Below are positions 1-5,214 of a DNA stretch of 5,214 nt, in pieces. How positions within the stretch are numbered: position 1 is the stretch's first letter; each line of letters begins with the position of its first letter. The translations under genes and the position numbers were made by a program. Origin of the DNA: a virus (Duplodnaviria; Heunggongvirae; Uroviricota; Caudoviricetes); IMG/VR virus record IMGVR_UViG_2534681705_000014, positions 1-5,214 of that record, one strand, 5' to 3'. Below the pieces are notes generated by a model. The model was not told the DNA's origin. It did no database searches and was given only the letters and a program-made list of their open reading frames with translations.

Positions 1-191
1 TCCATGAACCGGCAACGGATGTCAGCCGGGTGTTCTCAACGGTGATAGATATGCCGGCAGGACGGGGCCATGTCACCCTGACGTTTAATGTGTCATCGAC
101 CGGCGCGAACAAATGGACGCCGACAACGTACATCAGCGATTTACTGGTGGTGGTCATGAAAAAATCCACGGCAGGAATCAGTATCAGCTGA
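1..191 (+). CDS. J: Tail tip / host-specificity protein J-like, C-terminal fragment (5' partial; gene continues upstream of the window)
   Basis: Open frame in phase with codons starting at nt 3 runs from the window edge to a TGA at 189-191 (…[21 protein letters not shown]). It is not in the ORF track because it has no start codon in the window. The call is by synteny only: in lambda-type prophages the gene immediately upstream of lom is J. I cannot verify the residues against J from memory. Confidence 0.55.
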
Positions 192-208
192 CGATTTATT
201 AACCCGGA

Positions 209-234
209 GGGGCACCCGAAGCGGTGCCTTTTTT
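209..234 (+). terminator. Rho-independent terminator downstream of the J-like gene
   Basis: Seen in sequence: GC-rich inverted repeat GGCACC (211-216) / GGTGCC (223-228) with a 6-nt loop CGAAGC, followed directly by TTTTTT (229-234), 18 nt after the TGA stop. Confidence 0.7.
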
Positions 235-258
235 ATTGACTGAAAACGAGAGGTAATC

Positions 259-870
259 ATGCGCCATATTTTATTTTTTGTCGCTTTTCTGGCAGGAATG
301 GCCCTTCCTGCGCAGGCTGAAGTCGGACACGGTGCGTTTTCCGTGGGATATGCTCAGGTTCACCCGGGCGGCGTGCCGGCATTGTCCGGTACCGGTGCCC
401 GTACAGGTGATTTAAAAGGGATTAACGTGAAATACCGTTATGAATTCACGGACCATGCGGGTGGTATTGTTTCGCTGAGTTATGCGTCGGCGAAAAAAAG
501 CGACACGATGAAGACGGGTGAAAATACGTTCCATTATGAAAGCCTGCGCGGTCGTTATGTGAGTCTGATGGCCGGCCCTGTCTGGCAGGTCAGTGAGCAG
601 GTCAGTCTCTATGGCACGGCTGGGATGGCTTACACCCGCTGGTCTGACAGTGTTCAGGATTACCGACGTGATGAATTGAAACCGGGGTATGTGAAGGAGA
701 CGACCACCGCCAGTGATGGCTATACCGCACGACACCTGTCGCTGGCATGGGGTGCGGGTCTTCAGTTCAGCCCGGCAGAATCCGTGGCCATTGATATTGC
801 TTATGAAGGCTCCGGCAGTGGTGACTGGCGCACTGACGGTTTCATCGTGGGTGTCGGTTATAAGTTCTGA
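259..870 (+). CDS. lom: Lom-family outer-membrane protein (Ail/Lom/PagC/OmpX-type 8-stranded beta-barrel), prophage lysogenic-conversion gene
   Basis: 203-aa ORF with a Shine-Dalgarno AGAGG (249-253) 5 nt before the ATG. N-terminal signal peptide MRHILFFVAFLAGMALPAQA with an A-x-A cleavage motif. Alternating aromatic/hydrophobic beta-strand pattern and a C-terminal …DIAYEGSGSGDWRTDGFIVGVGYKF ending in Phe, as expected for a BAM-dependent barrel. The segments KGINVKYRYE, FHYESLRGRYVS and KETTTA and the C-terminus match my recollection of phage lambda Lom. Position between J and stf matches lambda. Confidence 0.9.
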   Translation: MRHILFFVAFLAGMALPAQAEVGHGAFSVGYAQVHPGGVPALSGTGARTGDLKGINVKYRYEFTDHAGGIVSLSYASAKKSDTMKTGENTFHYESLRGRYVSLMAGPVWQVSEQVSLYGTAGMAYTRWSDSVQDYRRDELKPGYVKETTTASDGYTARHLSLAWGAGLQFSPAESVAIDIAYEGSGSGDWRTDGFIVGVGYKF

Positions 871-896
871 TTAGCCAGGTAACACAGTGTTATGAC

Positions 897-923
897 AGCC
901 CGCCGGTTCAGGCGGGCTTTTTT
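897..923 (+). terminator. Rho-independent terminator downstream of lom
   Basis: Seen in sequence: perfect 8-bp inverted repeat AGCCCGCC (897-904) / GGCGGGCT (911-918) with loop GGTTCA, followed by TTTTT (919-923). It lies 27 nt after the lom stop and just before the stf ribosome-binding site. Confidence 0.75.
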
Positions 924-934
924 GTGGGGTGAAT

Positions 935-3900
935 ATGGCAGTAAAGATTTCAGGTGTACTGAAAGACGGTGCAGGTAAACCGGTACAGAACTGCACAATC
1001 CAGCTGAAAGCAAAACGTAACAGCACCACGGTGGTGGTGAACACGGTGGCCTCAGAAAATCCGGATGAAGCCGGGCGTTACAGCATGGACGTTGAGTACG
1101 GTCAGTACAGCGTTATTCTGATGGTGGAAGGCTTCCCGCCATCGCATGCCGGGACCATCACCGTGTATGAAGACTCACAACCGGGTACGCTGAATGATTT
1201 TCTCGGTGCCATGACGGAGGATGATGCCCGTCCGGAGGCACTGCGCCGCTTTGAACTGATGGTGGAAGAGGTGGCGCGTAACGCGTCCGCAGTGGCACAG
1301 AACACGGCAGCCGCGAAGAAGTCAGCCAGCGATGCCGGCACATCAGCCCGTAAGGCGGCAACCCATGCGACTGATGCTGCAGGCTCAGCACGTGCAGCCA
1401 GCACATCAGCCGGGCAGGCCGCGACGTCGGCTCAGTCAGCGTCTTCCAGCGCAGGAACGGCATCAACAAAGGCTACTGAAGCATCAAAAAGTGCTGCCGC
1501 TGCAGAGTCCTCAAAAAGCGCTGCGGCTACCAGTGCCGGTGCGGCGAAAACGTCAGAAACGAATGCTTCAGCGTCACAACAATCAGCCGCCACTTCTGCA
1601 TCCACCGCGACCACGAAAGCGTCAGAAGCTGCCACCTCAGCCAGAGATGCGTCGGCTTCAAAAGAGGCGGCAAAATCATCAGAAACGAACGCATCATCAA
1701 GCGCCAGTAGTGCAGCTTCCTCGGCAACGGCGGCAGGAAATTCCGCGAAGGCGGCAAAAACGTCCGAGACGAACGCCAGGTCTTCTGAAACGGCAGCGGG
1801 ACAGAGCGCCTCGGCTGCGGCAGGCTCAAAAACAGCGGCTGCGTCGTCTGCCAGTGCCGCGTCAACAAGTGCCGGGCAGGCCTCAGCCAGTGCCACCGCT
1901 GCCGGAAAGTCGGCAGAAAGCGCCGCATCATCCGCTTCAACAGCCACAACGAAGGCTGGCGAAGCCACTGAACAGGCCACGGCAGCAGCGAGGTCAGCTT
2001 CCGCAGCGAAGACATCCGAAACGAACGCGAAAGCGTCGGAAACCAGCGCAGAATCCTCAAAAACGGCTGCCGCATCGTCAGCCAGTTCGGCGGCGTCATC
2101 GGCATCATCGGCGTCTGCTTCAAAAGATGAGGCGACCAGACAAGCGTCAGCAGCGAAGGGCAGCGCCACGACGGCATCCACGAAGGCGACAGAGGCAGCT
2201 GGCAGTGCGACGGCGGCAGCTCAGAGCAAAAGTACGGCGGAATCCGCGGCAACGCGCGCCGAGACAGCAGCAAAACGGGCAGAGGATATTGCATCCGCTG
2301 TGGCGCTTGAGGATGCGAGCACGACGAAAAAGGGGGTAGTACAGCTCAGCAGTGCGACCAACAGCACTTCCGAGTCACAGGCGGCAACGCCAAAAGCCGT
2401 TAAGGCCGCGTATGACCTGGCTAACGGGAAATACACCGCACAGGACGCTACGACAGCACAAAAAGGAATTGTCCAGCTCAGTAGTGCAACCAACAGCGCA
2501 TCTGAAACGCTTGCCGCGACACCGAAAGCAGTGAAAGCAGCTAATGATAATGCGAATGGTCGGGTACCTTCTGCCCGTAAGGTGAATGGTAAGGCGCTTT
2601 CAGCGGATATAACACTGACGCCGAAAGATATTGGTACGCTTAACTCAACAACAATGTCATTCAGCGGTGGTGCTGGTTGGTTCAAATTAGCAACGGTAAC
2701 CATGCCACAGGCGAGTTCCATCGTTTACATCGCATTGATTGGTGGCGCTGGTTACAACGTCGGTTCCCCACATCAGGCAGGCATTTCAGAACTGGTTCTA
2801 CGAGCAGGCAATGGAAACCCCAAAGGAATTACCGGGGCTTTGTGGAAGCGTACAGCCGTCGGATTAACGAATTTCGCCTGGATCAACACATCCGGCGATA
2901 CATATGATATTTACGTTGAGATTGGCAATTATGCGACGAGTGTAAATATCCATTGGGATTGTACTGCAAATGCGTCAGTTTCTGTTTATACCTCGCCAAC
3001 ATATTCAGCGAGTAAGCCTTCCAGCGTTACCTATGGTGTTGTTTATACGATGTATAGCTCACATCAGAAACCTACACCATCAGATATTGGAGCACTGCCA
3101 ACAACCGGAGGAACAGTTTCAGGTCCGTTGTCTGTTACAGGTGGATTAACTGGTTCATTGAATGGTAATGCAAGTACAGCCACGAAATTGCAGACGGCAA
3201 GATCTATCGGTGGAGTTGTTTTCGACGGTTCTGCAAATATTAACCTTCCAGGTGTAAACACTACGGGTAATCAGAACACCACTGGTAATGCTGCAACTGC
3301 TACAAAACTTCAGACTGCAAGAAAAATATCCGGTGTTCCATTTGATGGTTCTACTGATATCACTTTAACCGCCGCGCATGTGGCTGCTTTTGCCAGAAGG
3401 GCAACGGATACATATGCCGATGCGGATGGTGGCGTTCCCTGGAATGCCGAATCAGGCGCTTACAATGTCACCCGCTCTGGCGACACCTATATTCTGGTTA
3501 ACTTCTATACCGGAGTCGGAAGTTGCCGGACCCTGCAGATGAAGGCGCATTACAGAAATGGAGGTCTGTTCTACCGTTCCTCAAGAGATGGCTATGGTTT
3601 TGAGGAAGGCTGGGCAGAAGTTTATACCTCGAAAAATCTTCCACCAGAAAGCTACCCAGTCGGCGCACCAATCCCGTGGCCATCAGATACCGTTCCGTCT
3701 GGTTATGCCCTGATGCAGGGGCAGACTTTTGACAAATCTGCCTACCCGAAACTTGCAGCCGCTTATCCGTCAGGCGTGATCCCTGATATGCGTGGCTGGA
3801 CGATTAAGGGCAAGCCCGCCAGTGGTCGTGCCGTATTGTCTCAGGAACAGGACGGCATTAAATCGCACACCCACAGCGCCAGCGCATCCAGTACGGATTT

Positions 3901-4294
3901 GGGGACGAAAACCACATCGTCGTTTGATTACGGCACTAAATCCACGAATAACACTGGTGCGCATACCCATAGTGTTAGCGGTACGGCTGCTTCAGCCGGT
4001 GCACATACCCATTCGATGACATTTGTTTCAGGTGGTTCCAGTGGTGCTCCGGGAAGTGGATCACCTGATTATTCTAAATACAGTGTTAACACTTCTTCTG
4101 CAGGCGCTCATACGCACTCTGTATCGGGTACTGCTGCAAGCGCAGGTGCACACGCACATACTGTCGGTATTGGTGCTCATACGCACTCCGTTGCGATTGG
4201 TTCACATGGACATACCATCACCGTTAACGCTGCTGGTAACGCGGAAAACACCGTCAAAAACATCGCATTTAACTATATTGTGAGGCTTGCATAA
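935..4294 (+). CDS. stf: Side tail fibre protein Stf, intact long form (about 1119 aa from the ATG), with conserved N-terminal domain, Ala/Ser/Thr-rich periodic stalk, tail-fibre repeats, a distinct central module and a His-x-His-rich C-terminal tip
   Basis: One uninterrupted frame. The ORF track begins at GTG 929 (MNMAVK…) but ATG 935 ([12 protein letters not shown]…) is better placed, 5 nt after GGGG at 926-929, and matches the lambda Stf N-terminus as I recall it. N-terminal block [26 protein letters not shown]…[15 protein letters not shown]…[23 protein letters not shown], the tail-fibre repeat [11 protein letters not shown]…[10 protein letters not shown], and the C-terminal …[36 protein letters not shown]…[29 protein letters not shown] are hallmark lambda Stf / T4 gp37-type segments. 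The stop TAA (4292-4294) overlaps the tfa ATG. Confidence 0.93.
1280..2326 (+). repeat. Degenerate tandem repeat tract inside stf: about 25 copies of a 42-bp (14-residue) Ala/Ser/Thr-rich unit
   Basis: Seen in sequence: the AAK(T/S)SETNA motif recurs in-frame at nt 1541, 1667, 1751 and 2003, spacings of 126, 84 and 252 bp, all multiples of 42. The protein parses into 14-residue units (…[14 protein letters not shown] / [14 protein letters not shown] / [14 protein letters not shown] / [14 protein letters not shown]…). GC is high here, about 70% in the 60-nt line 1801-1860, and the tract throws off long shadow ORFs in other frames. Confidence 0.8.
2333..2542 (+). repeat. Two tandem copies of the conserved phage tail-fibre repeat (about 44 aa, 132-bp period) inside stf
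   Basis: Seen in sequence: [34 protein letters not shown] and [33 protein letters not shown], with matching DNA gtacagctcagcagtgcgaccaacagc (2336-) and gtccagctcagtagtgcaaccaacagc (2468-). The motif corresponds to the phage tail fibre repeat family as I recall it. Confidence 0.8.
3164..3370 (+). repeat. Two tandem copies of a 40-aa (120-bp) tail-fibre shaft repeat inside stf
   Basis: Seen in sequence: [28 protein letters not shown] and [28 protein letters not shown], starting 120 bp apart (3164 and 3284) and separated by a Gly/Asn/Thr linker [12 protein letters not shown]. Confidence 0.8.
3863..4225 (+). repeat. His-x-His repeat region of the Stf C-terminal tip (SHTHS, GAHTHS x3, GAHAHT, SHGHT)
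   Basis: Seen in sequence: repeated (S/G)AH(T/A)HS units, including two near-identical [17 protein letters not shown] blocks. Established knowledge: the homologous T4 gp37 tip coordinates metal ions through His-x-His motifs in a trimeric needle, and the lambda Stf C-terminus belongs to this family. Confidence 0.8.
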
Positions 4295-4875
4295 TGGCAT
4301 TCAGAATGAGTGAACAACCACGGACCATAAAAATTTATAATCTGCTGGCCGGAACTAATGAATTTATTGGTGAAGGTGACGCATATATTCCGCCTCATAC
4401 AGGTCTGCCAGCAAACAGTACCGATATTGCACCGCCAGATATTCCGGCAGGCTTCGTGGCTGTTTTCAACAGTGATGAGGCATCGTGGCATCTCGTTGAA
4501 GATCATCGGGGTAAAACGGTTTATGACGTGGCTTCCGGCGACGCGTTATTTATTTCTGAACTCGGTCCGTTACCGGAAAATGCCACTTGGTTATCCCCGG
4601 AAGGGGAGTTTCAGAAGTGGAACGGCACAGCCTGGGTGAAAGATGCAGAAGCAGAAAAACTATTCCGGATCCGGGAGGCGGAAGAAACAAAAAACAGCCT
4701 GATGCAGGCAGCGAATGAGCATATTGCGCCACTTCAGGATGCTGTAGATCTGGAAATCGCAACGGAGGAAGAAAACTCGTTGCTGGAAGCCTGGAAAAAG
4801 TATCGGGTGTTGCTGAACCGTGTTAATACAACAACTGCACCGGATATTGAATGGCCAGTAGCACCTATAGGGTAA
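4294..4875 (+). CDS. tfa: Tail fibre assembly protein Tfa (chaperone for Stf trimerisation, T4 gp38-like family)
   Basis: 193-aa [57 protein letters not shown]…[24 protein letters not shown], which matches lambda Tfa as I recall it. Shine-Dalgarno GAGG (4282-4285) lies inside the end of stf. The ATG (4294-4296) overlaps the stf TAA, consistent with translational coupling. Confidence 0.93.
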
Positions 4876-4961
4876 ATTCGTAATGATTACCTAAATACGT
4901 TATTCTTTTGTTCAAAAAGTGATTTTGCTATAGGTAGGGAGTATGTTCTTGGATTAATAAT

Positions 4962-4992
4962 AAAAAATCGCCATGAAAGAGCTTCATGGCGA
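4962..4992 (-). terminator. Strong rho-independent terminator oriented for minus-strand (leftward) transcription, facing the 3' end of tfa
   Basis: Seen in sequence: perfect 10-bp inverted repeat TCGCCATGAA (4968-4977) / TTCATGGCGA (4983-4992) with a 5-nt loop AGAGC. On the minus strand the hairpin is followed by UUUUUUAUUAUU (complement of 4950s-4967). There is no T-run on the plus-strand side. Confidence 0.7.
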
Positions 4993-5214
4993 GTACATAA
5001 ACGTACAAAATGTGATGAAAGTAGAGTGGCGTAAGCCACTATATTAAGATATGACAATAGCAAACAAAAGTAAATAACATTTTATGGACGTTTAATTGTT
5101 AATTATAAAAACTAGAGTGCCCGATATTGTTTATCTTGCTTTAAAATAATGTACTCAAACCAAATTTTTGAGCTAAAAGCTCAAATAATATAAATGCAAT
5201 GATAATGTTTAATA

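Follow-up and report, generated by a model that had tools for sequence, protein, structure and literature searches.

The AT-rich DNA that directly follows the tail fiber assembly gene tfa in a 5,214-nt stretch of phage DNA (hereafter the window) carries a real, common and overlooked small gene, whose architecture and evolutionary pattern are unsurprising and which does not found a new class of system. We read this gene as a moron, a leftward unit encoding a YncL-like membrane peptide in the short mosaic right arm of a lambda-like E. coli prophage at ydfJ, an assignment that we consider likely though well short of certain. Below we describe the composition break at which the segment starts, the 33-codon ORF that crosses the right edge of the window, its resemblance to YncL and its transcription signals, and then the arm beyond the window and its distribution across prophages.

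A composition break follows the tail fiber genes

The left part of the window carries three + strand genes and leads into an AT-rich spacer, with the following features (window coordinates):

259-870, + strand: lom (Ail/Lom), by family match
929-4294, + strand: stf, with prophage tail fiber N-terminal, fiber-repeat and collar domains
4294-4875, + strand: tfa, tail fiber assembly (Pfam Caudo_TAP, E = 6e-43; annotated as tfaQ in identical genomes)
4856-4875, no strand: mosaic joint, where similarity to lambda tfa and K-12 tfaQ ends inside the last tfa codons
4876-4957, no strand: AT-rich spacer from the tfa stop to the terminator, without a conserved ORF

GC content is 28.3% in 4876-5214 versus 53.1% in 1-4875, where the lowest-GC 339-nt stretch anywhere has 42.5%; positions 5101-5160 reach 26.7%. 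The abrupt drop at the end of tfa that a preliminary description of this DNA had pointed out is therefore real, and the flanking tail fiber genes that it had assumed (Ail/Lom, Stf and the Caudo_TAP protein Tfa) were all identified. It had also stated that no sizeable + strand ORF follows tfa, and indeed none of at least 30 aa is present in 4876-5214. The ORFs of 249-335 aa at 1332-2339 (+), 1432-2181 (-) and 1527-2294 (-) were rejected as genes because they are other frames of the Ala/Ser-rich stf, by-products of its GC-rich, repetitive coding sequence.

Compared with other tfa genes (lambda tfa, K-12 tfaQ), homology is lost ~15-20 nt ahead of the tfa stop (~4856-4860), which assigns the final tfa codons to the segment downstream. 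When window 4200-5214 is compared with phages, the matches end at query positions 657-659, which is window 4856-4858, and the alignment concurs. The spacer 4876-4957 is the most variable part among relatives, with 53-73% identity in divergent alleles. The junction would be this abrupt because of modular recombination at the conserved tfa 3' end. At the other end of the window, the genomes with 99.7% identity over 738-5214 have no match to 1-737 (the end of J and the 5' part of lom), which points to a second mosaic joint inside lom.

A conserved 33-codon ORF crosses the edge of the window

Positions beyond the window were read in E. coli strain 90-9281 (L001), where the window coordinate equals the L001 coordinate minus 7125. 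Together, the window and this extension contain the following leftward elements:

L001 ~12085-12560 (window ~4960-5435): module A, the segment that holds the small gene
5305-5277 (L001 12430-12402), - strand: promoter-like site TTGACT-17-TATTGT, outside the window
5242-5141 (L001 12266-12367), - strand: 33-codon ORF encoding a predicted YncL-like single-pass membrane peptide, of which 5141-5214 lies in the window
4993-5140, - strand: 3' UTR of the small gene, ~150 nt
4992-4958, - strand: intrinsic terminator closing the leftward unit, with UUUUUU after a stem of 10-11 bp

A minus-strand frame that stays open to the window edge had been noticed in the preliminary description and set aside as too short to call. 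The frame exists, reading ...LNIIIAFILFELLAQKFGLSTLF up to a stop codon at 5141-5143, and it is the one real gene here, being the tail of the 33-codon ORF. The ATG lies outside the window at 5242-5240, and codons 11-33, the last 23, lie inside it. The gene is convergent to tfa, the left neighbor of the AT-rich feature. Its product, MKIQSKLIVLLNIIIAFILFELLAQKFGLSTLF, has one hydrophobic stretch (residues 7-23) and a GRAVY of 1.51.

We aligned module A across 10 loci representing four kinds of downstream context and three named attachment sites, with DNA identity down to 79%. The 33-codon ORF is the sole ORF that survives in 10/10 of these loci, with the same start, stop and length. It is equally intact in 45/45 IMG/VR loci with the module, where three protein variants occur, and hence in 55/55 loci in total. 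Three other ORFs of the region were tried and discarded: a 58-aa ORF on the minus strand at 4887-5063 is disrupted by frameshifts or stops in five of the ten relatives, a 31/37-aa minus-strand ORF annotated in phage PhiR70_1 is broken in loci L013 and L010, and a 35-aa + strand ORF at L001 12430-12537 carries indels in the same two loci.

Between L001 and the most divergent allele, L010, the ORF differs by 12 synonymous and 7 non-synonymous changes (pS 0.61, pN 0.088; binomial P = 4.7e-5). Since most copies are at least 95% identical, the evidence for selection comes mainly from one divergent lineage (the L010 type, 13 genomes) and from the L011 and L012 alleles. No synonymous bias appears in the other reading frames of the same stretch in this pair. 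Because substitutions in the ORF are biased to synonymous sites, selection acts on the peptide itself, and the substitution pattern shows that the ORF is under purifying selection.

The weakest point of the gene model is that the ATG has no Shine-Dalgarno sequence ahead of it. The gene has also largely escaped annotation: no feature is annotated under the module among the matches listed (90 E. coli records), gene callers have predicted the exact peptide just two times in ~15 billion proteins, without a name in either case, and a literature search with the peptide sequence found nothing.

The peptide is a distant homolog of YncL

The NCBIfam model NF000537 (YncL) matches the 33-aa peptide with E = 1.3e-5 and 25 bits, which is below the curated 35-bit cutoff of this equivalog family, so the peptide is not a YncL ortholog. 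BLASTP aligns it to K-12 YncL with 39% identity over 28 aa, ungapped from Met1. The Smith-Waterman score between the two is 60, versus 20.2 +/- 4.1 for 20,000 composition-preserving shuffles, none of which reaches 60; judged by these scores, the similarity to YncL is specific and goes beyond composition.

Both proteins consist of a single helix with a hydrophobic core at residues 7-23, and they share M1, S5, K/R6, V9, L10, N12, A16, L19, F20, L22, F27 and G28. K-12 YncL (b4598) has 31 aa, and the C-terminus of the prophage peptide is two residues longer. For each, the transcript is short and monocistronic and ends at a terminator of its own, as predicted in the case of the prophage gene. The genes differ in their surroundings: K-12 yncL is chromosomal (1517099-1517194, in the patD-ortT gap), whereas the prophage gene directly follows tfa, in prophages that occupy ydfJ, bio/ybhB or zinT or that carry sit genes. 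They also differ in that the prophage gene lacks the GGTGG-type ribosome-binding site of K-12 yncL and has a 3' UTR of ~150 nt with an extra hairpin, compared with ~60 nt in K-12. Because it falls under the equivalog cutoff and sits at another position, we file the prophage gene as a distant YncL homolog rather than as YncL.

In K-12, YncL is induced by heat shock and in minimal medium, and its production depolarizes the inner membrane, condenses the nucleoid and lowers viability (PMC12542507). YncL is also a substrate of the RseP protease in vivo (PMC10470546). The Salmonella ortholog (STM14_1932, within STnc1110) was first listed as the "sRNA" STnc1110 and is RpoS-dependent (PMC5437024). Heat shock, minimal medium and RpoS regulation are reported for YncL only, and membrane localization, like depolarization on production, is documented for the K-12 protein only (PMC12542507, PMC10470546). 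By analogy with YncL, the prophage peptide probably acts on the membrane energetics or stress tolerance of the lysogen.

Predicted transcription signals and a structured 3' end

A terminator scan found 2 sites versus 0.3 expected. The predicted terminator at 4992-4958 folds at -15.2 kcal/mol (z = -5.1; 0/200 shuffles are as stable) and is one-directional because the + strand has no T run. It is kept in 10/10 aligned loci, including a G-to-A change that converts the top G-U pair into an A-U pair. The end of a leftward transcript had been guessed to lie near 4960, which fits this predicted minus-strand terminator. Upstream of it, the 3' UTR contains a conserved hairpin, GUGGCUUACGCCAC, at + strand 5026-5039, followed by an unpaired U-rich stretch and then the terminator; the fold of 4955-5050 (-) reaches -27.1 kcal/mol (z = -7.0).

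The candidate promoter is a 9/12 match to consensus. In the divergent allele its -35 hexamer is fully conserved and its -10 hexamer is conserved at 5/6 positions. With 3 such matches in this AT-rich DNA versus 8.9 expected, the site is no better than chance would give, and we infer a promoter here only tentatively.

An inverted repeat of 25 nt, whose arms are 76% complementary, lies at L001 12150-12174 and 12480-12504 (window 5025-5049 and 5355-5379). It brackets the 33-codon ORF and the promoter-like site, and the 3' UTR hairpin falls within one of its arms. This repeat may be due to chance or be the trace of a small mobile unit.

The structured 3' end raises the possibility that the locus is an RNA gene, in which the ~90-nt conserved end would be an Hfq-type sRNA, either UTR-derived or independent, and the peptide would be secondary or part of a dual function. 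The fold is far better than that of shuffled sequence, the 3' end is the best-conserved part between L001 and L010 (93-97%), and Salmonella yncL itself entered the literature as an sRNA (PMC5437024). That conservation is, however, confounded by a recombination breakpoint, as L010 and the L012 type have the same sequence up to about L001 12165 from the left. Rfam gives no match for the module at E <= 1, there is too little variation for a covariation test, and the synonymous-biased substitutions of the ORF argue that the peptide is under selection. We regard the RNA gene as an unlikely explanation of the locus.

Toxin-antitoxin and spacer explanations

The properties of the peptide (33 aa, GRAVY 1.51, a single helix) would also suit a type I toxin-antitoxin system, where a hydrophobic membrane toxin and an antisense RNA would stabilize the prophage or abort infection. 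Like Hok, Ldr, Ibs, TisB and ShoB, the peptide is small and hydrophobic and has a predicted inner-membrane location. A weak + strand promoter-like site at 5051-5080 would yield an RNA antisense to the ORF, and the homolog YncL depolarizes the membrane and lowers viability when produced (PMC12542507). The -35 hexamer of the + strand site is, however, not conserved in the divergent allele, and we found neither a + strand terminator nor a conserved antisense unit. A long folded leader is typical of hok, ldr and tisB. The prophage locus differs in this respect, its 5' leader measuring only ~27 nt, with no long regulatory leader and no antisense RNA partner found. Searches of NCBIfam, Pfam and PADLOC revealed no sequence similarity of the peptide to these type I toxins, and YncL counts as a small protein of the stress response rather than as a toxin-antitoxin toxin. 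Taken as a type I pair, the locus would be a quite unlikely case.

The segment could instead be non-functional filler, left behind by recombination or serving as a spacer from tfa to the attachment site, with an ORF that is open by chance. The arm is full of decayed tfa fragments, the ORF has no Shine-Dalgarno sequence and is almost never called by gene finders, and its promoter match is no better than chance. This reading is difficult to reconcile with an ORF that is intact in all 55 loci while neighboring ORFs decay, with the bias to synonymous sites (P = 4.7e-5), with a YncL similarity that composition does not explain, or with a strong terminator in the right place, and we consider it distinctly improbable.

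The right arm beyond the window is short and mosaic

In L001 the prophage extends for 1,733 bp past tfa and stops at a truncated ydfJ, which serves the Qin prophage of K-12 as attachment site. An arm of this length ending at ydfJ is present in all complete genomes with at least 99.7% identity to the stf-tfa of the window. Among genomes with 98.8-99.7% identity to window 738-5214, eight (seven of which reach 99.7%) are 100% identical over the tfa-to-ydfJ stretch, and five further genomes (98.8-98.9% over 738-5214) are 99.8-99.9% identical there. The GC content of the whole arm is 33%, versus 55% in the phage genes that precede it (L001 1-12000). Besides module A with the 33-codon gene, the arm contains the following:

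L001 12585-12687: first decayed tfa 3' end
Between these remnants of tfa: module B, whose single annotated ORF is a 65-aa orphan
L001 12820-13017, - strand: this 65-aa ORF of module B, hypothetical protein WP_001421370.1
L001 13346-13445: second decayed tfa 3' end, which continues 51 nt into lambda post-tfa sequence, to 13496
Last 273 bp of the arm: attachment-site-proximal part, shared with the end of K-12 Qin and several phages

The arm contains nothing beyond the small gene, the two tfa remnants, the 65-aa orphan and the part next to the attachment site. The three tfa 3' ends are direct repeats, and the decayed copies look like scars of successive stf-tfa module replacements that separate the segments of the arm. 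An invertible tail fiber segment of the Mu G, P1 C or e14 P type was rejected, as the tfa ends are direct repeats and no recombinase gene is present in the arm. A general mechanism in which a cassette is flanked by tfa ends was likewise discarded, since no tfa remnant follows the module in the AraC and sit contexts described below.

Relatives of the 65-aa ORF were found only in E. coli, at 88% identity or more, several of them with different lengths; the product of the ORF matches no family, and a PDB search with it gave no match. This ORF may not be a real gene, its copies being too similar for a selection test. Products of the arm have no match in Pfam or PHROGs, and PADLOC defense models yield none at E <= 1 when queried with the 33-aa and 65-aa products. 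Tandem Repeats Finder detected no arrays. Rfam yields nothing in the arm beyond IS009 (RF02111), a family listed as a candidate small RNA that marks tfa 3' ends. It matches L001 11800-11960, 12573-12648 and 13212-13403; the first match corresponds to window 4675-4835 in the coding 3' end of tfa (168 bits), and the two decayed copies score 41 and 33 bits. In this locus the IS009 "RNA family" simply tracks the conserved protein-coding end of tfa and not the AT-rich module.

The module is widespread and its downstream context varies

We counted 942 copies of the AT-rich 339 bases, every one chromosomal, in 829 of the 5,426 complete E. coli genomes, which places the module right after tfa in ~15% of E. 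coli genomes; nine genomes carry 4876-5214 at 100% identity. In E. coli IAI1, for example, the module is at NC_011741.1 853053-853413. It comes directly after a tfa in all contexts that we examined. By comparison, tfa-like DNA is present in 5,418/5,426 genomes. In 43/45 IMG/VR loci module A lies 289-291 nt after the stop of an intact or truncated tfa, and in one locus the distance is 334 nt. Two exact-pattern scans covering one genome per species, in which the E. coli representative does not have the module, found no copy outside E. coli.

Among phage records, 54 match tfa and three of these continue into the module, two of the three being the same phage; PhiR70_1 is a fourth record with the module and has no tfa match. 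Lambda and 50 other phages match only up to the end of tfa. The preliminary description had likened the segment after tfa to the variable b region of lambda-type phages, and had suggested comparing the junction across prophages for a conserved stf-tfa with changing content after it. Both hold: the segment is the arm that leads from tfa to the attachment site, equivalent to the lambda b region, its content differs between prophages, and because lambda and about 50 lambdoid phages have tfa without the module, the expected pattern of a conserved stf-tfa followed by variable DNA is borne out.

Four kinds of context follow the module. In L001, L013 and 17 IMG/VR loci, a tfa remnant, module B and ydfJ come next. 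Phages ev099, mEp332 and PhiR70_1 and a prophage at bioA/ybhB have an AraC-family regulator, IS fragments and int. The third kind has sitABCD directly after the module, and the fourth a tfa remnant, a Bcr/CflA (MFS) efflux gene and then sitABCD. The AraC-family regulator is found ~0.9 kb past the module (L002 10180-10923, L007 7506-8249, L008 7506-8249); a prophage next to zinT has the same sequence context as the AraC loci and no annotated AraC gene. The iron/manganese transporter sitABCD, with or without the Bcr/CflA efflux gene, occupies the arm directly downstream of tfa at L010 5803-10349, L011 3703-6356 and L012 3699-6352. On one contig, L039 (IMG/VR 2526164599_000005), module A, module B and the AraC context are stacked in series; arm segments can thus accumulate serially. 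All of this cargo is of known kinds, and the prophage of the window has none of it.

These contexts bear on the proposal that the window edge marks the start of a sizeable undescribed accessory or defense system running rightwards, for which the preliminary description had called for the sequence to be extended and annotated. We find it very improbable: genuine cargo does follow the module elsewhere, in the form of sitABCD, an MFS efflux pump or an AraC regulator, and no complete E. coli genome matches the window over its full length, 1-737 differing in the best-matching genomes, but the extended arm runs only 1.73 kb to ydfJ in eight genomes with an identical and five with a 99.8-99.9% identical arm, this short arrangement is common to 575-578 E. 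coli genomes, no large cargo is present, annotation of the arm gave no PADLOC, PHROG or Pfam match, and the cargo seen elsewhere is of known kinds. The locus is an ordinary kind of phage add-on gene and not the edge of a large new system.

A probable small moron in a b-region-like arm

The moron concept reportedly goes back to Juhala and Hendrix in 2000; lom, bor and ea47-ea59 are the lambda examples of morons and b-region genes. As in lambdoid morons, the locus comprises an added gene whose GC content is unlike that of its flanks and which is present in some lambdoid genomes and absent from the same place in others; it comes with a predicted terminator and a candidate promoter. Like the lambda b region, it lies between the tail fiber genes and the attachment site. 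The arm is shorter, 1.73 kb versus ~5 kb to att in lambda, and shares no sequence with the lambda b region beyond the 51 nt after a decayed tfa end. With its predicted expression, the 33-codon gene is a candidate for one of the smallest morons.

We propose that the AT-rich segment is the start of the b-region-equivalent arm and that the window would hold the downstream two-thirds of the moron. The latter would be a ~310-nt leftward transcription unit, convergent with the late tail fiber operon and consisting, in order, of a putative sigma-70-like promoter, a ~27-nt leader devoid of a Shine-Dalgarno sequence, the 33-codon ORF, the 3' UTR and the terminator. A short leftward mRNA would be made from the prophage, and the terminator at 4992-4958 would halt it ahead of an antisense run into tfa. 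Going by YncL, the lysogen would insert the peptide into its inner membrane, where it could alter membrane energetics or stress tolerance.

A more specific suggestion, which we regard as doubtful, is that the phage deploys the YncL-like peptide as a membrane effector that lowers the membrane potential of the lysogen, the 3' end of the transcript possibly also acting as a regulatory sRNA. If so, the peptide could block superinfecting phages or, toxin-like, switch the cell into a low-metabolism state.

As a moron, the locus adds to the E. coli pan-genome an unannotated small-protein gene under purifying selection, and a member of the YncL stress-peptide family that is carried by lambdoid prophages. 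For researchers interested in small proteins it offers a natural paralog to compare with YncL, and for phage biologists a compact candidate lysogenic-conversion gene, at a locus that is a textbook case of mosaic exchange at the 3' end of tfa.
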